A stretch of 64,000 nucleotides of DNA from an uncultured Acidobacteriaceae bacterium (GCA_963702325.1 CAVPCG010000025.1:36124-100123); one strand, 5' to 3'. Counted from the first letter of the stretch, positions 651 to 37,257 are shown. The notes: generated by a model not told the origin, from the letters alone. Numbers and translations: made by a program.

Positions 651-1424
651 CTACTTGCTCGCTGTCTGATTGGTTGGCTTCGTCACGATTTTGGCCAGCG
701 CTGCGGCGAGCTCATCTGACTTAAAACCAAATGGTCCCGGCTTGCTTTTGTAAGTAATCTTACCGTGCGGATCAATCACATACATGCGATCCGGCCAGCC
801 CGTATAGGCGCGTTCGGTGGAGTTACCAAACTCATCCAACACGGCGGGAAATTTCAAATTAAGTTTCCGTACACAAGCTCCGGCGATGGATGCTCTCTCT
901 TCTTCATCTTTTGGGGTGGCGAAAACAACTTTGTCTTTTATATTGCTCTGCATTTGCCACACGTCGCTTGGATGGGCTTCGGTGATGTAAACCACCAGGA
1001 ATGCGACGCGGTCATGATACTGCTCGTAGAGCTTATTGATAGCGGGAGCCTCCCGCCGGAATGGCGGTCAAGTATAGCTGCCGAAGACCAGCATAACCGG
1101 CTGCCGTTGATTCAACTCCGAAAGCCGGATGGTCCCACTCTTGTCCAACTTATTCAGCGAAAAGTCTGGAGCAGCGTCTCCCACATTGAGAGTTCCGGCG
1201 CGGGCGCGCGTCCATAATGTTTCAAATGGATAAAGCAAAAAAGGGACCGGACCGGGCATTTTCGCCATCACGCGCCCGAACTCTTCGGGAGGCTGATGCA
1301 TAGACCACCAGATGAATCCTCCAAATGCCAGGTAAATCACCAGCAGCCCAATTGAAACGCGAAGCAGTCGCCGTCGGGCAGTCGGACTCAATTTCCAGGA
1401 CGGAAGCGAAATTTTCCGAATCAT
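651..1424 (-). CDS. iodothyronine-deiodinase-like thioredoxin-fold protein with in-frame UGA at codon 119 (candidate selenocysteine) and an N-terminal TM anchor
   Basis: Track ORFs 1068..1424 and 651..995 are in the same frame and separated only by TGA 1068..1070. The joined protein reads ...QPVMLVFGSYT-U-PPFRREAPAINKLYEQYHDRVAFLVVYITEAHPSDVW...MYVIDPHGKITYKSKPGP. This matches the deiodinase active site FGS(C/A)T-U-PPF and the YIxEAHPSDGW motif. TM helix: LLRVSIGLLVIYLAFGGFIWW. The start overlaps the upstream stop as ATGA. Confidence 0.75.
1042..1067 (-). promoter_or_regulatory. candidate bacterial SECIS hairpin downstream of UGA 1068..1070
   Basis: mRNA reads UGA CCGCCAUUCCG GCGGGA-GGC-UCCCGC. 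A 6-bp GC-rich stem (1056..1051 pairing with 1047..1042) starts 11 nt after the UGA and carries a GGC apical loop about 20 nt from the U. An alternative CCGCC/GGCGG pairing overlaps it. Folded by eye only. Confidence 0.4.
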
Positions 1425-2002
1425 CTAGTTGCCACCGCCTGCAACGGCTGCTTCCGGTCGCGGCCTGCGTAGCCGAGTTGCGCCGTTTGCTTGCCAATTT
1501 CCCGGTACATTTCAGGATCGCGAGGCTGCCACGTGCCCAAACCATCCACGTACCGATTGAACATGCAGAAAGCCGCAGCGATCAATACCGTATCGTGGAT
1601 TTCTTTATCGGACGCTCCGCCCTCTCGAGCTCGCTCGACGTCTTGCGCGGTAACGTGCTTGCCGCCCTTCTGAACCTTCCCTGCAATATTTAGAAGTGCT
1701 TTCATCTTGTCTGAAACTTCGGCCGTCTCGAAGTTCTGTTTGACCTGACTAACCAATTCATAATCGGCCCCGCTGCCGCCAAGATGCTGTGCCGCCGTAG
1801 ATCCGTGACATGTCTGGCAGTAGTAACAGTCATTCTGAGAAGAAACATATGCCGCGATGATCTCGCGTTCGGCGGGAGTTAAGGTGTTTGGACCTCGCAA
1901 CAGAACCTCTGCCAGTTCGCACAGGGGTCTGGTGGTTGCTGGACTAAATGCGAGCGGCCCTCGAATGCCAGGAAGTTCTTCGGGAAGCTTGATATAAGCC
2001 AT
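1421..2002 (-). CDS. AhpD-like / carboxymuconolactone decarboxylase family peroxidase-related protein (Cys form, CxxC)
   Basis: Track ORF 1421..2032. Motif SSQNDCYYCQTCHGS (CxxC-xx-H of the AhpD core) and FNRYVDGLG near the C-terminus. I prefer the internal ATG at 2002 (MAYIKLPEE), which has a weak AGGA upstream. The stop overlaps the next gene start (ATGA). Confidence 0.75.
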   Translation of the reverse strand: MAYIKLPEELPGIRGPLAFSPATTRPLCELAEVLLRGPNTLTPAEREIIAAYVSSQNDCYYCQTCHGSTAAQHLGGSGADYELVSQVKQNFETAEVSDKMKALLNIAGKVQKGGKHVTAQDVERAREGGASDKEIHDTVLIAAAFCMFNRYVDGLGTWQPRDPEMYREIGKQTAQLGYAGRDRKQPLQAVATR

Positions 2003-2329: not shown

Positions 2330-2704
2330 ATGAAATTGAAGAACGTAGTGCGATTAGGATTTCTGTCCGCGTTTGCTTTCGTGCTGATAGCGGCCAGTGC
2401 AGATTCCGGCAAATCAATTGTAGTAAAAGGATACGTTCTTGATTCCGCATGCGCATTCACCAAAGGCCTGAAGAAGCCTATCAGCGCCGAATGTGCAACT
2501 GCATGCGCAAAGGCCGGGTCTCCGCTTGTAATCCTGTCAGACAGCGGGAAAATTTATTGGCCAATCGCCGATACCACACCCGCCAGCGGACAGAATGACA
2601 AGCTGCTGCCGTTCGCAGGGCAAAAAGTTACTGCCAGCGGAAAAACATTTCAGCGTGGCGGTTCGACCGCACTGGTGATCGAAAAAATCGAACCGCAGAA
2701 CTAA
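2330..2704 (+). CDS. small secreted Cys-containing hypothetical protein
   Basis: Track ORF 2276..2704. ATG 2330 is preceded by AGGAGG. Signal-peptide-like MKLKNVVRLGFLSAFAFVLIAASA. Four Cys (DSACAF, ECATACAKAG). No family recognised. Confidence 0.55.
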   Translation: MKLKNVVRLGFLSAFAFVLIAASADSGKSIVVKGYVLDSACAFTKGLKKPISAECATACAKAGSPLVILSDSGKIYWPIADTTPASGQNDKLLPFAGQKVTASGKTFQRGGSTALVIEKIEPQN

Positions 2705-2902
2705 ATCAGTCGTTCCATATCTGTCGTTTTTAATTCTTTTGAAAGAAAGAGGGGTATCCCTGGTCCTGATTCTGCTGGCCTTGGTAGCGTTGCGAAGTCC
2801 GCGGGGAAACCTTGCTCGGTGTCGCAGTGGTTCTCGCGGGATTGCCCGTTTACAGCTTGTTTCAGCGCAAGGTAACCTGAAAGCCAGAGGGAAGGATTGC
2901 AA

Positions 2903-3498
2903 ATGAACGAAGAGAATGCCATAAAACCCGCCACGAAAATCAAAATCATCGAAGACGCGGAAGCAACCGGCGAAACCGCCGCCGCCTACGATTTCTGGCG
3001 CAGTGGCTCAGGCAGGCAGCAAGTTCCCGGAATCATCAAGTGCTTCGGAGCGCGTCCTGATTTTTTGCGGCAAGTAGTCGAATTTTCAAACACCGTTCAC
3101 TTTTCCGAAGGGCATCTCTCTCGCCGCCACAAAGAGATGATCGCCAGCTACGTCTCTTACTTAAACCGGTGCCCATATTGACTGGACAGCCATGCCTACT
3201 TCCTGCGTGTTCAGGGAGCAACCGATCAATGCGTAGCGGCGATTTTCGAAGGCAGGCTGGATGACGCAGGCTTGACCGAGGCAGAGCGCGCCCTCTGAAT
3301 TACGCGGAGCTGATCACCGAAGCTGCTTACCGTTCAACGCCCGAAGACGTTGACAAGTTGCGAAATGCGGGCTGGAACGAAGATCAGATCGCAGAGGCCG
3401 TGTATGTCATCGCACTATTCGCTTTCTTCAATCGCGTCGCCGATGCCTTCGGCGTGCCCGCCCAGAACTATCTTGCCACCGGGAAAATGACCCCTTAG
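2903..3498 (+). CDS. AhpD-like / CMD family protein with in-frame UGA in a CxxU motif (candidate selenoprotein), plus an apparent 1-nt frameshift near 3295
   Basis: Track ORF 2897..3181 ends ...SYVSYLNRCPY at TGA 3179..3181. Reading continues in frame as LDSHAYFLRVQGATDQCVAAIFEGRLDDAGLTEAERAL, then TGA 3296..3298. The -1 frame continues LNYAELITEAAYRSTPEDVDKLRNAGWNEDQIAEAVYVIALFAFFNRVADAFGVP...TAG 3496..3498. NRCPY-U-LDSH aligns with NDCYY-C-QTCH of the paralog at 1421..2002. Confidence 0.7.
3197..3220 (+). promoter_or_regulatory. candidate bacterial SECIS hairpin downstream of UGA 3179..3181
   Basis: CUUCCUG-CGUGUU-CAGGGAG: 7 pairs (3199..3205 with 3212..3218, one G-U), with a 6-nt loop containing GU that lies 27-32 nt after the U of UGA. 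Folded by eye only. Confidence 0.35.
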
Positions 3499-3775: not shown

Positions 3776-3782
3776 ACATTCG

Positions 3783-4481
3783 CTATTTGGGCTGAGGAAC
3801 CACCCGCAAATACGGCTTCAACGTCTTCCAACCGGCGGGATACAACTTCTGCGCCTCTTCATTGGAAACCGCGCCGCTGATGATCACGTCATCGCCGGGC
3901 TTCCAGTTCGCCGGCGTAGAGACCTTGTGCTTGGTGGTCAACTGTAACGCATCGAGCACCCGCAGCACTTCGTCAAAGTTCCGGCCCGCGCTCATCGGAT
4001 AGATGAGCTGAAGTTTAATTTTCTTGTCGGGGCCAACCACAAACACCGTACGCACGGTGGCATTGTCGCTCGGTGTGCGACCTTCAGAAGTAGTCCCGCT
4101 CGACGCCGGCAACATGCCGTAGAGCTTCGCCACTTTCAGTTCCGGATCACCAATCATCGGATAATTCACCTTGTGACCCTGCGTCTCTTCGATATCGAGA
4201 GCCCACTTGCTGTGACTGCTAACAGGATCAACGCTGAGTCCGATGATCTTCGTATTCCGTTGTGCGAATTCGGGCTGAAGTCCCGCCATCGTCCCAAGTT
4301 CGGTTGTGCAAACGGGAGTGAAATCTTTCGGGTGAGAAAACAAAATCGCCCATCCATCGCCGATCCATTCGTGAAAGTTAATCTTCCCCTGCGTGGTATC
4401 GGCGGTGAAATCAGGGGCCGTGTCATTGATGCGAAGCGCTGGCGCTTGGGCGGTCGGAGTTGCTGTATCTGTGCTCATCAT
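3783..4481 (-). CDS. 1-Cys peroxiredoxin (Prx6-like)
   Basis: FSHPKDFTPVCTTELG peroxidatic-Cys motif with a single conserved Cys. Full-length 232 aa ORF. GAGGAGAG RBS upstream. Confidence 0.9.
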   Translation of the reverse strand: MMSTDTATPTAQAPALRINDTAPDFTADTTQGKINFHEWIGDGWAILFSHPKDFTPVCTTELGTMAGLQPEFAQRNTKIIGLSVDPVSSHSKWALDIEETQGHKVNYPMIGDPELKVAKLYGMLPASSGTTSEGRTPSDNATVRTVFVVGPDKKIKLQLIYPMSAGRNFDEVLRVLDALQLTTKHKVSTPANWKPGDDVIISGAVSNEEAQKLYPAGWKTLKPYLRVVPQPK

Positions 4482-4562
4482 TCTCTCCTCATAAAATTAA
4501 TCTCCCGGAATTACCGGGGCGGAAGTGCGGAATCGCCCGAAGCTCGTCGGGCGAAGTTCCTT

Positions 4563-4598
4563 GCAAAAAGAAACCCACCCAATGTGCGGCGGGTGGGT
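4563..4598 (-). terminator. terminator-like hairpin plus U-run in the region upstream of the peroxiredoxin gene
   Basis: Minus strand: ACCCACCC-gccgcacatt-GGGTGGGT followed by TTCTTTTTG. Two further hairpins (CGCCCGA/TCGGGCG at about 4534..4553 and CCCCGG/CCGGG at about 4508..4522) lie between it and the RBS. Confidence 0.4.
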
Positions 4599-4685
4599 TA
4601 CGGAAAAACTACTGCGCTACCCACACGCCGGCGCCCGTATACAACAACACAGGCCTGCCGGAATGGAGCCTACGCGCATGGGTAC

Positions 4686-4714
4686 AGCATACTCATGGGC
4701 CGGAATTCAGTCAA
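4686..4714 (-). promoter_or_regulatory. candidate sigma70-type promoter (TTGACT-N17-TATGCT) facing the peroxiredoxin gene
   Basis: Minus strand TTGACT (4714..4709), a 17-nt spacer, then TATGCT (4691..4686). Sequence match only. Confidence 0.3.
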
Positions 4715-4925
4715 TGAGAACGCGATAGCATGCGCCGAATCACCCGAAACGTTACAAACGGTCCCAAGTCATATGTCTGACGAGTCACTCGCCCGCATTC
4801 AGATATGCAACGAACCTCCAATTCTCATCGCAGAATTTCGAGTACCTCCCCGCAGTGGCTCGGATACCAGAGGGCTATCGGATACTAGAGTGGTAGTAGT
4901 GCATCCGCACAGGCTAACGTAAGCG

Positions 4926-7892
4926 TTGATGTGCTGGCTTACCGATTGCGTCGTACTCCGAAAGTATTGTTTACATGTGTCTTTCCTTGTCGTCTTGGCC
5001 ATTTTCGCTGGCCGCGTGGCTGCCCAGGCTCCCGACACAGCAACTCTCAAAGGGCAAATAAGCGATCAGAGCCATGCCGCGGTACCGGGCGCTGAGATCA
5101 TGCTCAAGGGAACGCTCACGAGCCTCGAGCGCAATGCGCACTCAGATTCGTCTGGGAACTTCAGCCTGTCCGGCTTGGCAATCGGTCAATATGCACTGAC
5201 TGTGCGCAAGGAGGGCTTTGCAAATGCGAGCCAGACCCTGACGCTTGTCGCCGGAACTACGGCCGATCTTAAGATTCAACTCAGTGTTTCGGCCGTACAA
5301 ACGCAGATTCAGGTGACCGGAACGGCCGGGGAAGTTCGCAGCGACGAGCCCCAACTTGGCGATCGTTTGAGTTCAGCAGAGGTGCAGGAATTGCCGCTGC
5401 TAAACCGGAGGATTACGTATCTGCCCCTGGTGAATGCGGCGAACCACCCGGCGCTGAACCAGGGCGATGTCTTCATGAACCAGGATCTTTTTGCGACGAA
5501 TGGCTCAGGACGCCGGCAAACGTCGTGGGTGGTGGATGGCAGCACGGGAAACGACAGTTGGGGAAGGCAGACAATTTTCACCAACGTCCCGCGAGAGGCC
5601 GTGGAGGAGATGACCGTACTCGAGAACGCGTTTTCAGCCGAATACGGCGCAACTACTGGCGGTGTGGTAAATGTCGTCACCAAAACAGGCGGCGATGAAT
5701 ATCACGGAGACCTACTCGGAATGTGGCGGCCAAACGGTACCGCTGCCAGGCTCGCGGGCTTCACCCCAAACAATGCGACCAGCGGCAACCAGATCGTCAG
5801 CGATTCGTTAGGCCAGACGGGAGCTTCGCTTGGCGGGCCGGTGCCCGGCAGCGACCGCACTCACTTTTTCTTTGCCGGTGAGTATAGTCACGAAGATCGC
5901 GGCTCCCCGGTAACGTCCCCACTCGAACCCAGCGTTTTCGTCGGGCATTATACCGATTGGATGACCTTTCTTCGCATTGACCATCGCATCAGCGATGCGA
6001 ACGCACTCTTCTTGCGGGCGAATACTGACAGCTTCCATGACACCGACCCCAACGGCACCGTGGGTGGAAACAGCCTGCCGACCGTGGATCGAATCTTCCG
6101 CCGGCGGACGTATTCTCTGGAGCTTGGCGACACGGCCATCCTCTCGCCATCGTGGCTCAACACCGCCCGTGCTCAATTCCAACTTGCTTCGCCAATCACG
6201 GAATTCGATCCCGTCATTTTCGGAACCCAATTTATCGTGCCGATCACTCAGGGTGGAACGTTTACCAGCGGAACCTCGCAGTCGGCGCTGCTTCTCAATC
6301 GCCAGTATGATTTCAATGACACGGTGGCGGCAAATTGGAACCAGCACCAATTCAAGTTCGGCGCTGATGTCGTGCACTCTCACAGCGGAGGGAACAGCAA
6401 GGAATTTGGTGGTCCCTTCTTCCTGGGACAGCTCACCTACAATCCGTGCAATCTGGGGCTTGCCCAATGCGAAAGCTCGGCCTATCTAGGCAATATCGCC
6501 AACGTGGCGAGCTACAACCAGAGCTACGGCAACGCCAGTTACACCGTGGACGATACGATCTGGGCGCTCTTCGCGCAGGACAACTGGAAAATCCGCCGCG
6601 ATCTGACGCTCGATTTGGGGCTGCGCTATGAGCAGCAGACGTTTACCGATTCCCGCAAGGATTTTGCGCCCCGACTCGGCTTTGCCTATGACTGGCAGGA
6701 CCGCGGCACCACTGTCATCCGTGGCGGGTTCGGAATCTATTACTCACAGATGGTGGACAATGCTGCCGCGAATTATGCGCTCAGCGGGCCCACCGGCTTT
6801 TTCAATTTTTCCGCGGGCCCGGGCCAAGTCGGATTCCCGGCAAGTGTGTCGGACGTACCGCTGCCGGCCTTTCCTCAGGGGGCTGTCGCACCCGTACGCA
6901 GTATTTACATCCGGCCTGGGCGAGCCGCGTTCTATAACCAGTTTTTCGATACCTCGTTGCTTATTCGATATCCAGATGCGTTGCTCAATCCATCCTCTGA
7001 GCAATGGACTTTTGGCGTCCAGCGGCAACTCGGGAAAGGCTGGGTGCTCAGTGCGGATTACGTGGGATCGCATGCCATCCACGTGTTGCGGCCGCTCGAC
7101 GTGGATCCTCCGTCGCCTTTCGTTCGCACCGCCCAGGGGCAAACTCGCAGCGCACAGGCAGCGAACTGCACGCGTCCCCTGTGGATTGCGTTCTATGAAG
7201 CCGCGGGGCGCACCTGCAACCCCAGCGCGGCGAATCCGCCCCAACCCGCATACGGTGTGATTCAAACGGACGTGAACGACGGTTACGCCCGCTACAACGC
7301 GCTGGATCTCAATCTCAGTCACCAGTTCGCGCGCCGCTTCGCTATGCTCGCGAGCTATGTGTACTCGCACGCGATTGACAACGTTGATCCCGATGTTCCT
7401 GGCCAAAATCCGAACGATCCGAATTTCACCGGAAAACAAGAAGAAGGCAACGCGATTTTCGATGAGAGGCACCGCTTCGTGCTCAGCGGCACATATCATG
7501 CTCCGCTTGGTTTGGATTTCGGCGGAATTGCCACACTCGCTTCGGGCCTGCCCTTCAACTATGTGACCGGATCAACCAACAGTGGTGACACCGGCGGGAC
7601 CACAGATCGTCCGGTAATCAATGGCGTGGTGGTCGGGCGCAACACCGGGCGAGGAAACGCGATCTATGATTTTTCGCCATTCCTTGAGAAGTCGTTCAGG
7701 CTCACGGACCGATTTCGAATACAGGGCCGCGTCGAATCCTTCAACGTGTTCAATCACTCGAATTTTGTCGGCTATAACAGCACCTTCGGCAACCAGGCCA
7801 CGTCGAGTGCCGCTCTCGGGCTGCCTCTCACTGGAATCACGAACCAACTGCCCGCTCGCTCGCTACAGTTTATGGTGCGATTGGTGTATTGA
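4926..7892 (+). CDS. TonB-dependent outer-membrane receptor with N-terminal carboxypeptidase-regulatory-like domain
   Basis: 988 aa. Signal peptide ...LAIFAGRVAAQAP. CarboxypepD_reg-like segment (GQISDQSHAAVPGAEIMLKG...GNFSLSGLAIGQYALTVRKEGF). Plug/barrel-type sequence (VLENAFSAEYG, GGVVNVVTKTG). C-terminal aromatic residue. The ATG at 4929 is equally possible. Confidence 0.85.
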   Translation: MMCWLTDCVVLRKYCLHVSFLVVLAIFAGRVAAQAPDTATLKGQISDQSHAAVPGAEIMLKGTLTSLERNAHSDSSGNFSLSGLAIGQYALTVRKEGFANASQTLTLVAGTTADLKIQLSVSAVQTQIQVTGTAGEVRSDEPQLGDRLSSAEVQELPLLNRRITYLPLVNAANHPALNQGDVFMNQDLFATNGSGRRQTSWVVDGSTGNDSWGRQTIFTNVPREAVEEMTVLENAFSAEYGATTGGVVNVVTKTGGDEYHGDLLGMWRPNGTAARLAGFTPNNATSGNQIVSDSLGQTGASLGGPVPGSDRTHFFFAGEYSHEDRGSPVTSPLEPSVFVGHYTDWMTFLRIDHRISDANALFLRANTDSFHDTDPNGTVGGNSLPTVDRIFRRRTYSLELGDTAILSPSWLNTARAQFQLASPITEFDPVIFGTQFIVPITQGGTFTSGTSQSALLLNRQYDFNDTVAANWNQHQFKFGADVVHSHSGGNSKEFGGPFFLGQLTYNPCNLGLAQCESSAYLGNIANVASYNQSYGNASYTVDDTIWALFAQDNWKIRRDLTLDLGLRYEQQTFTDSRKDFAPRLGFAYDWQDRGTTVIRGGFGIYYSQMVDNAAANYALSGPTGFFNFSAGPGQVGFPASVSDVPLPAFPQGAVAPVRSIYIRPGRAAFYNQFFDTSLLIRYPDALLNPSSEQWTFGVQRQLGKGWVLSADYVGSHAIHVLRPLDVDPPSPFVRTAQGQTRSAQAANCTRPLWIAFYEAAGRTCNPSAANPPQPAYGVIQTDVNDGYARYNALDLNLSHQFARRFAMLASYVYSHAIDNVDPDVPGQNPNDPNFTGKQEEGNAIFDERHRFVLSGTYHAPLGLDFGGIATLASGLPFNYVTGSTNSGDTGGTTDRPVINGVVVGRNTGRGNAIYDFSPFLEKSFRLTDRFRIQGRVESFNVFNHSNFVGYNSTFGNQATSSAALGLPLTGITNQLPARSLQFMVRLVY

Positions 7893-34604: not shown

Positions 34605-37257
34605 ATGTCTCTTACCAACGGCACCAAAATCGGTCCCTACGAAATCCTCGCCGCCATCGGCGCCGGAGGAATGGGCGAAGTCTATCGCGCCCGCGACACC
34701 CGCCTGGGACGTGACGTCGCCCTCAAAATTCTTCCGGAATCTCTCGTCCGCGACAATGACCGCCTCCGCCGTTTCGAGCAGGAATCCCGCGCCGTCGCCA
34801 CTCTCAACCACCCCAACATTCTCGCCATTCACGATGTCGGCGAGCACAACGGCACTCCATTTCTCGTATCAGAACTTCTCGAAGGCGACAGTCTCCGGGA
34901 AATACTCAACGGAAGCACGCTCTCCCAGCGCAAAACCATTGACTACGGAGTTCAGATCGCCCATGGATTAGCAGCAGCGCACGAAAAAAATATCGTCCAT
35001 CGCGATCTCAAGCCCGAAAATTTATTCGTGACCAAAGACGGCCGGGTAAAAATCCTCGACTTCGGATTAGCCAAGCTCACCGAGAAGCCGGACGCTCGCC
35101 ACAGTACCGATGGCATCACCCTCACCAGTTCGCCCACCGCCGTAGGAACCGTCATGGGCACCGCCAGTTATATGGCGCCCGAACAGGTACGCGGTCAGGC
35201 GGTTGATCCTCGCACCGATATTTTCGCCTTCGGCGCCGTGCTCTTTGAAATGCTATCCGGAAAGCGCGCCTTCCTCCGCGACACACCCGCCGAAACCATG
35301 ACCGCAGTCTTAAAAGAAGATCCGCCCGAGACGCAGAATTCAACCCATCCGATTTCACCGGCTCTCGATCGCATCATCCGCCGCTGCCTCGAAAAAAATC
35401 CAGAGCAGCGCTTCCAATCCGCGAAAGACTTGTCATTCGCCCTCGGCTCATCCACCGACACTCACAGCAGCGCCGCTCTCCATACCGTAGAACCTCGGCG
35501 AAGGATTCCCTGGGTGCTGTGGGCCGCCATCGCAACCTCGCTCGTAATCGTCGCCGCAGTGACGTGGTTTCTCGCGAGACGCCACGCGCCTGAAGCCCGC
35601 ATGCAGTTCGCCATCGCAGTTCCCGGCGAAACCAGTCACATGGCTTTATCGCTCGATGGTTCCATGCTGGTTTTCGTCTCACCCGACCAGGATTCTGGTA
35701 CGCCCGAGCTCTTTCTCCAGCGCGTAGGCTCGCCCGATGCTACTCCGCTGCCGGGTACGCAAGGAGCGAGTTATCCATTCTGGTCTCCCGACGGCGCGTA
35801 CGTTGCATTTTTTGCCGGTGGCAAGCTGCAAAAGATCGCGATTGCGGGAGGCCCTCCTCAAGTATTGGCCAATGTGCAGTCAGCCCGCGGAGGAAGCTGG
35901 GGCAACCGTAACGTGATCGTCTATGAGCCCGACGCGTCGAGTCCGTTGTGGCGCATCAATGCGGATGGAACGGGTTCAGCGGCAGTTTATCCGAATTTTT
36001 TCGGCAAGGATGACCAATCTCATCGCTGGCCGGTTTTTCTTCCGGACGGAGTTCATTTCTTATTTTGGGCGGGCAATTTTGAAAATCGCAAGGAGGACTC
36101 CTTCAGCGGTATTTATAGCGGCTCCCTGGATGGCAAGGACAAAAAGCTGGTCGTTCTGTGCCATTCCAGCTTCGCTCTCGCTGCCGGCCATATTTTTTAT
36201 GCTGACGATAACAGGCATTTGGTCAGCATAGCCTTCGATGCTACTTCCTCCACCGTTTCGGGTACCGCCAGCGTCATTGCGGATGTTGTCGGCTTTCAGC
36301 CGTCCACCTATTGGGTAGCAGTGACCGCAGCGCAGAATGGGACTCTCATTTATAACGCCAGCGCGGGCGCGGCATTATCGGTTCTTACCTGGGTTGACCG
36401 CAGCGGCAAGGAACTGAGACGCATCGGCGAGCCGGGCGTTATGGCTAATCCCATGCTGTCGCCCGATGGCACCCGGGTTGCCCTCGACATCAGCGATCAA
36501 AAAGCCAACAACGTTGACGTTTGGATAGAAAGCACAACCAACGCCGGGAACTCGCGTTTTACTTTCGATCCCGCTGAAGAGGTGGTGCCGGTATGGTCGC
36601 ACGACCAGCGGACAATCGCATATCGGACGGCGGCAGGCACCGGGGGATTATTGCTGGTTTTTAAGCCAACTAATGGCCTGGAGCGAGAACGCCAGGTATT
36701 TGAAGCCGCCGGTTTCGATGACATCTTTCCCAATTCCTGGGCGCACAGGCGATCAGCAGGTCTTGTGCACTTACGAAAATCCTAAGAATCATTATCTGGC
36801 ATTGGTCCCAGTGAATGGAGGAAAGCCGGTACCATTCCAGTCCGGACAGGGCAATCAGACAAACGGTCAGATCTCTCCCGATGGAAAATGGGTCGCCTAC
36901 GCTTCCGATGAATCCGGCAATTGGGAGATCTACGTAACCACGTTTCCCGGCGCATCCGGCAAGTGGCAAGTCTCACGCGGAGGCGGCACGGAACCACGCT
37001 GGCGCGGAGACGGCAAAGAAATCTTCTATCTCGGGCCCTCCGGAATGCTCACGGCGGTATCAGTCAGTACCACTGGTACATTTTCTACGGGAGTTCCCAC
37101 GCCCCTATTCCAGGTTCACAACCGCGCACCTATTTCTTCGAGCGATCTGTTCAGTTATGACGTGACCAAAGACGGCAACCGCTTTCTGCTGAACCGTTAT
37201 GTAAAACCAGAAAAAATCGCGCCGCTAAATATCGTCCTCAATGCCGGAAACCCGTAG
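34605..37257 (+). CDS. Ser/Thr protein kinase fused via a TM helix to a TolB-like beta-propeller, apparent 1-nt frameshift near 36744
   Basis: GAGGMGEVYRA, HRDLKPEN, DFGLAK and APE kinase motifs. TM helix WVLWAAIATSLVIVAAVTWF. Repeated PxWSPDG-type propeller motifs. Track ORFs 34605..36785 and 36673..37257 join at ...IFPNSWA / TGDQQVLCTYENP. Confidence 0.8.

Follow-up and report, generated by a model that had tools for sequence, protein, structure and literature searches.

Within the window, the whole stretch of 64,000 nucleotides analysed here, lies a gene for a CMD/AhpD-fold protein whose coding sequence is crossed by an in-frame TGA and, further downstream, by a one-base deletion (Table 1). 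A Shine-Dalgarno-like GAGGGAAGGA at 2887-2896 stands upstream of the ATG, and with translation table 11 the open reading frame from that ATG stops after ...SYVSYLNRCPY at the TGA, where a preliminary description made from the sequence had correctly put it, within NRCPY-U-LDSH. With TGA read as selenocysteine (Sec, U) this frame runs on as LDSHAYFLRVQGATDQCVAAIFEGRLDDAGLTEAERAL to a further TGA at 3296-3298, and the −1 frame from 3295 reads LNYAELITEAAYRSTPEDVDKLRNAGWNEDQIAEAVYVIALFAFFNRVADAFGVPAQNYLATGKMTP up to its own stop, the family-like LNYAELIT... included.

Table 1. Positions of the genes and sequence features at the locus, numbered from the first nucleotide of the window
Feature	Position	Strand	Remarks
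Predicted AhpD-like selenoprotein gene, whole	2903..3498	+	198-aa CMD/AhpD-fold "peroxidase-related enzyme"
Predicted AhpD-like selenoprotein gene, 5' part	2903..3294	+	codons 1-130 and the first two bases of codon 131; ATG at 2903
Predicted AhpD-like selenoprotein gene, 3' part	3295..3498	+	−1 frame, L132 to P198, stop TAG 3496-3498
Redox motif C90-P-Y-U93-L-D-S-H97 (CxxUxxxH)	3170..3193	+	AhpD proton-relay pattern with E78
In-frame TGA, predicted Sec codon (U93)	3179..3181	+	TGA in 83/83 related loci; Cys in sister clade
Predicted bacterial SECIS, upper hairpin	3199..3218	+	CUUCCUG (3199-3205), loop CGUGUU (3206-3211), CAGGGAG (3212-3218)
Possible lower helix enclosing the UGA	3176..3230	+	UAUUGA paired with UCAAUG; partly conserved
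Frameshift site	3293..3298	+	third base of codon 131 missing between 3294 and 3295; frame-0 stop TGA 3296-3298
Strain-variable patch around the frameshift	3260..3324	+	65 nt; 13 differences from the X1 strain
Distant Cys TIGR01926 paralog (NDCYYCQTCH)	1421..2002	−	TIGR01926 90.3 bits
Predicted deiodinase-like selenoprotein gene (FGSYT-U-PPF)	651..1424	−	TGA 1068-1070; TGA kept in 9 orthologs of the fetched loci

The family to which the protein belongs is readily recognised. The family tests took as query the 198-residue translation, in which C stood for U and the frame was corrected for the missing base. This query scores 103.2 bits with the TIGR01926 model ("peroxidase-related enzyme"; cut-off 81.8) over residues 14-188, and the Pfam CMD family PF02627 matches residues 52-134 at an E value of 1.6e-19 and spans the TGA, which bears out the earlier remark that the sequence after the UGA stays family-like. 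Three other models scored below their thresholds, namely the canonical AhpD model TIGR00777 (19.8 bits, cut-off 191.95) and the (seleno)protein models NF041238 AhpD_rel_CFYUT (73.1 bits, cut-off 175) and NF053654 GroundWater_YciW (34 bits, cut-off 310). Sequence matches to the solved AhpD-core proteins 2oyo and 6k40 cover residues 40-190 with E of about 2e-17, and in these NRCPYCLDSH (U as C) aligns with NRCLYCAVSH. An AlphaFold model of an intact ortholog (the L001 gene, TGA as C) has a pLDDT of 92 and is all-helical, and its top Foldseek matches are 2prr, 6k40, 3c1l, 2pfx and 2oyo at query-normalised TM-scores (TMq) of 0.78-0.81. The gene is very probably a member of the known AhpD-like (TIGR01926/COG2128, CxxU) family of bacterial selenoproteins, from a Terriglobia-type acidobacterium.

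That family was described in 2005 from Sargasso Sea sequences as the "AhpD-like protein" (COG2128, CxxU), with 27 sequences and predicted bacterial SECIS elements (Zhang, Fomenko & Gladyshev; PMC1088965). A 2006 survey found it in complete genomes, with Acidobacteria among the selenoprotein holders (PMC1794560), and it appears under TIGR01926 with CxxU in a 2026 review (PMC13188914) and is included in BSepDB (PMC13326102). The view that Sec-containing AhpD-like proteins are an established family thus agrees with the literature and with a TIGR01926 score above the cut-off. In common with the published members the window gene would have Sec at the position of the second Cys, Cys homologs exist, and shortly 3' of the UGA comes a predicted SECIS hairpin whose small apical loop contains G. 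It differs in that the window copy comes from a Terriglobia-type soil acidobacterium and carries a 1-nt deletion, nothing of which is different in kind, and in that within its clade a 40-nt segment of TGA plus hairpin is almost invariant across at least 80 species. The window gene is then an ordinary case of the family published in 2005 and holds little new biology. It does make a clean example of how a gene for a predicted bacterial selenoprotein comes to be shortened, or mistranslated as Trp, by standard gene calling, and the fitting annotation would be one CDS with a Sec codon, flagged as frameshifted in the assembly.

Conservation of the TGA was followed through 83 relatives, made up of 80 species genomes (one genome per species) and 3 metagenome contigs, and nearly all of the 80 genome loci are labelled as Terriglobia, Acidobacteriaceae or Acidobacteriota MAGs. 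Every one of the 83 has TGA at the U93 codon and a frame that is open 3' of it, at protein identities of 78-87%, and the predicted Sec form is carried by at least 80 Terriglobia species. A homolog search returned 749 matches, and the best 42 of them (78-87% identity) print W at the Sec position apart from one that prints R; the remaining homologs with a readable motif have Cys there, except for a single Gly (P0099, of the Cys clade). In terms of the JGI proteins (P0004-P0045) these are 41 metagenome gene calls with a printed Trp and one cluster, P0028, with a printed Arg, and three of the W-printing proteins that were looked up (loci L001-L003) translate only with TGA as W. In a tree built with the Sec/Cys column masked, a Sec clade (42 TGA, 2 Cys, 1 Arg) is separated at 100/100 support from a Cys clade of 73. 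The true Cys counterparts make up this separate sister clade, at about 64-75% identity.

The UGA could be taken as a plain stop or a base-call error, leaving a truncated or decaying CMD gene without selenocysteine, as indeed standard gene callers take it when they end the ORF at 3181. The preliminary description had itself named a base-call error as what would undo the selenocysteine reading, and it is the retention of the TGA in 83 of 83 relatives that speaks most directly to this. TGA and open frame go together in all of these, the clades split as they do, and other genes of the window end at TGA in the normal way, which together exclude both a base-call error and a decaying stop. Purifying selection downstream of the TGA, the conserved hairpin at SECIS distance and a second gene with a conserved TGA 2 kb away also count against a plain stop, and that reading is extremely improbable. 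A different form of recoding, with TGA read as Trp or Gly in this lineage or with a programmed −1 ribosomal frameshift at 3293-3298, would account for the W printed in the JGI gene calls and for the exact coincidence of the frame-0 stop with the shift site. However TGA terminates 10 of the 28 long ORFs in the window, and so the code is not reassigned there; the homologous residue is Cys and not Trp; and the shift is needed in 0 of 83 relatives. Nor does the site read CC CUC UGA offer a slippery heptamer, and the sole match to a DnaX element, with 11 bits where the threshold is 35, is noise. Both forms of such recoding were rejected on the ordinary use of TGA in the window and on the uninterrupted relatives, and their being true is a vanishingly small chance.

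Just 3' of the UGA the preliminary description had noticed a 7-bp hairpin with a GU-containing loop, and it is there with the arms and loop as given in Table 1. The hairpin starts 17 nt and its apical loop 24 nt after the UGA, and the loop has G at its position 2. Taken alone it folds with −8.6 kcal/mol (z-score −2.05; 7 of 200 shuffles were as good), and with 81 nt of context the z-score rises to +1.0, so the thermodynamic signal alone is modest. All seven pairs form in 84 of 84 sequences, and no covariation is seen in the hairpin because the stem never varies. The codons of the stem are fixed to the same extent (TAC in 83/83, TTC, CTG and CAG in 84/84, GGA in 83/84), and neighbouring codons vary freely at synonymous sites. 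Expressed as observed over expected synonymous diversity, most of the gene lies at 0.75-1.0 and only codons −1 to +12 after the TGA fall to 0.16-0.44, with the minimum of 0.16 over the Y-F-L-R-V-Q-G hairpin codons and no other trough in the gene. Selection here acts on the nucleotides of the hairpin, and such a trough is the signature of a bacterial SECIS, which the hairpin is predicted to be.

A lower helix enclosing the UGA may also exist. Its pairs form in 66-83 of the 84 sequences and without compensatory changes, and synonymous variation is reduced at codons TAT (−1), GAT (+15) and CAA (+16). A scan of 3120-3320 against Rfam at E ≤ 10 returned noise only and no SECIS match. Metagenome contigs with flanks unlike the window still match a core of 46-56 nt comprising TGA and hairpin. 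When 3164-3219 was compared with contigs of runs X1, X3, X5 and X6, several matched in this core only, at 92% identity or above, and the flanks of such contigs encode other CMD proteins, for example with ...EAIASWVSWLNRC... on the 5' side and ...NEKTVQAIA... on the 3' side of the core. Paralogous CMD selenoprotein genes would therefore have near-identical SECIS nucleotides in common. At about 40 nt and almost invariant in at least 80 Terriglobia species, the segment of TGA plus predicted SECIS could serve as a nucleotide probe for soil metagenomes.

In the proposed decoding, the UGA would be read as Sec with the hairpin recruiting SelB that carries Sec-tRNA(Sec), and on the strength of the comparative sequence evidence we infer insertion of Sec at U93. 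Searches for selA, selB, selD and tRNA-Sec, by tblastn with approximate E. coli SelA, SelB and SelD queries and by aragorn, found none in the 64-kb window or in 86 fetched loci, and the sole tblastn match of these queries was EF-Tu (tuf) in one related locus (L078).

The codon of E78 is at 3134-3136 and this residue together with the motif around U93 reproduces the AhpD proton-relay pattern E-x11-C-x-Y-C-x3-H, with E78, C90, Y92 and H97 invariant across 21 aligned homologs. The corresponding relay is made of Glu36, Cys48, Tyr50, Cys51 and His55 in PA0269 and of Glu118, Cys130, His132, Cys133 and His137 in M. tuberculosis AhpD (PMC3141380), and the latter five match E78, C90, Y92, U93 and H97 of the window protein. 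M. tuberculosis AhpD (TIGR00777; 1knc, 1gu9; the reductant of AhpC) shares with the window protein a CxxC-type site (CxxU here), the Glu/His proton relay and a thioredoxin-like disulfide chemistry (PMC3141380), but the Foldseek TM-score is about 0.5, the motif lies elsewhere in the chain and there is no ahpC-ahpD operon here. Closer are the solved Cys-type "uncharacterized peroxidase-related" proteins 2prr, 2oyo, 2pfx and 3c1l and the D. radiodurans AhpD 6k40, which have the same all-helical fold of about 190 residues and an NRC-x-YC-x-SH motif at the same place, although with Cys-Cys in place of the Cys-Sec predicted here and at 23-29% identity.

By homology to AhpD the protein would be an all-helical CMD/AhpD-fold thiol/selenol oxidoreductase in which Sec93 replaces the second Cys of CxxC. 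The selenol/thiol pair of Sec93 and Cys90 would be oxidised to a selenenylsulfide and reduced again, Glu78, Tyr92 and His97 would act as the proton relay, and the probable role would be the re-reduction of a peroxiredoxin-type partner or of a small peroxide or disulfide substrate. The catalytic roles of all five residues, and the partner, are in this way assigned by analogy.

A quite different chemistry may be considered in which the Sec AhpD-fold protein and the neighbouring deiodinase-like selenoprotein act on halogenated organics and not on peroxides, that is a selenol-based reductive dehalogenation in soil Terriglobia. Weak hints towards it are that the model of the L001 ortholog matches the debrominase Bmp8 (6ohi, 6ohj), a thiol-dependent reductive dehalogenase of the same AhpD/CMD fold, at a TMq of 0.73, and that 11 of 83 related loci have a deiodinase-like TGA gene no more than 6 kb from the Sec AhpD-like gene. 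But identity to Bmp8 is 19% and the match is weaker than those to the peroxidase-related proteins. We consider dehalogenation by this pair very unlikely.

The single nucleotide that the preliminary description had found apparently missing near 3295 is indeed absent from the assembly. At this place the window has CT-CTG where the 83 relatives all have CTN followed by CTG or ATG, and the deletion is unique among 84 sequences. Leaving aside the Sec codon, the frame of the window copy is thus interrupted, and that of all 83 relatives is uninterrupted at this site. Without the base between 3294 and 3295, translation would end after 131 residues, at 3296-3298. Lost with the remainder would be most of the helix at 125-143 and those at 146-154, 159-182 and 189-192, as placed by the ortholog model, which is the last third of the fold, and because this part belongs to the region conserved with the solved structures, a real deletion would almost certainly leave the product inactive.

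Downstream of the deletion no relaxed constraint was found, whether by dN/dS, which is 0.05-0.16 against the six nearest relatives (background median 0.065), or by conserved columns, at 0 of 38 of which (those highly conserved) the window departs. A decaying pseudogene, named in the preliminary description among the outcomes that would undo its reading, does not fit with such values. The nearest of these relatives is only 80% identical in DNA, and so a recent deletion would have left no trace.

Closer comparisons came from sequencing runs. Run X1 contains a near-identical strain, with contigs over 2400-3086, 3777-4192 and 4210-4480 that have 4, 2 and 0 mismatches. Its contig over 3194-3414 equals the window except in the patch 3260-3324, where 13 bases are substituted and a G is inserted behind 3294, so that the frame is intact. 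Contigs of X5, from more distant relatives, have the extra G behind 3294 too, and those of X9 are also one base longer. The window's own allele across 3260-3324 occurs in no indexed public run, and JGI metagenome contigs gave no exact match, be it to the patch in either form, with the base or lacking it, or to its flank. For the read-level inspection that had been proposed around 3290..3300, the outcome is that the nearest strain has the base and that the window's own allele was found in none of the indexed runs.

Over a further 20 kb or so the window was compared with Illumina-derived contigs of near-identical strains, and the two disagree by an indel at four places only, from which the assembly is not generally indel-ridden. 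One such place is 7613, where the X1 contig has an extra A inside a TonB-dependent receptor gene; as that ORF is intact in the window to its typical C-terminus (...RLVY), the window is probably right there. Split genes as a gauge of indels gave none shown to be split among five pairs or groups of overlapping ORFs (ten ORFs). On the plus strand at 34605-37257 an ORF of 726 aa overlaps at its end with one of 194 aa in another frame (36673-37257), which has a PD40 repeat, and this may be a second frameshifted gene. Elsewhere, tuf (EF-Tu) at 10460-11674 of L078 loses its frame about 270 codons in, likely through an assembly indel in an essential gene. In the ortholog of L081 an additional in-frame stop stands 20 codons ahead of the Sec codon, and that of L035 ends three codons early.

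Quite how the deletion arose is evenly balanced, with mutation and a consensus or assembly error about equally likely. It may be a real and very recent mutation, fixed or polymorphic, by which a selenoprotein gene has newly become a pseudogene, and the chances of this stand slightly below even. The site is not in a homopolymer, the indel agreement over some 20 kb with the contigs of near-identical strains fails at few sites and at 7613 favours the window, and about 2 other orthologs of the 84 (L081, L035) are also defective. Against a mutation stand the complete lack of downstream decay, the absence of the allele from the indexed public runs and from the JGI contigs, the intact site in the nearest strain (X1) and in every relative, and a gene under strong purifying selection with dN/dS of about 0.06. 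That the assembly or its consensus is at fault, with the organism's own gene an intact and functional selenoprotein gene, has a probability likewise just short of one half. All conserved downstream residues are retained, the deletion falls inside the 65-nt strain-variable patch where the building of a consensus from mixed strains is error-prone, and frameshifts are known in related MAG assemblies, tuf in L078 being one example. Yet no other clear frameshift was seen in the window genes examined, and the context that is not a homopolymer tells against an error as well. Whether it marks recent gene loss or a consensus error, the frameshift matters for judging assembly quality.

Among the neighbours of the gene is one for a 1-Cys peroxiredoxin (3783-4481). 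The protein of the Cys paralog is 28% identical to the Sec protein over 151 aa, and its NDCYYCQTCH aligns with NRCPYULDSH, so that the UGA stands at the second Cys of the AhpD motif as had been read from the alignment before. The further idea of a Cys/Sec pair of paralogs in one locus holds as far as a TIGR01926 paralog is present, but the paralog is a distant one, and of 83 related loci only 4 have its ortholog at up to 6 kb from the Sec gene; a close Cys/Sec pair in the window was rejected on these two grounds. Such a tandem of close paralogs was seen in one of 86 loci, L084 4001-5229 (ENA ERZ25039539 contig_1570), where a Cys-clade gene at 4001-4594 is followed directly by a Sec-clade gene at about 4645-5229. 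The latter has NRCPY, a stop codon and LDSH, is 76% identical to the window protein and is given by gene callers as ORFs of 106 and 88 aa.

The second UGA-recoded gene that had been reported nearby is the deiodinase-like gene, 2.1 kb away, the recoding of which is again a prediction. Of the 11 loci among 83 that have its counterpart within 6 kb, 5 have it directly next to the Sec gene and divergent from it, and a gene for a small secreted 4-Cys protein is found at up to the same distance in 19 of the 83. With neighbours recurring in 4, 11 and 19 of 83 loci, the "redox island" is a loose and variable neighbourhood and not a conserved unit. On the minus strand at 1030-1070 the segment CCGGCGGGAGGYUCCYGCC, 3' of the deiodinase-like TGA, is conserved in the 9 orthologs that keep this TGA, and it can form GCGGGA-GGY-UCCYGC from 11 nt after the UGA, with RNAfold preferring a CCGCC...GGCGG hairpin. 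Just downstream of the Sec AhpD-like gene and on the opposite strand, 3570-3615 matches the Acido-Lenti-1 RNA (RF01687) with 55.1 bits against a gathering score of 37, which supports an acidobacterial origin of the DNA, and a terminator-like hairpin is found at 3615-3596.
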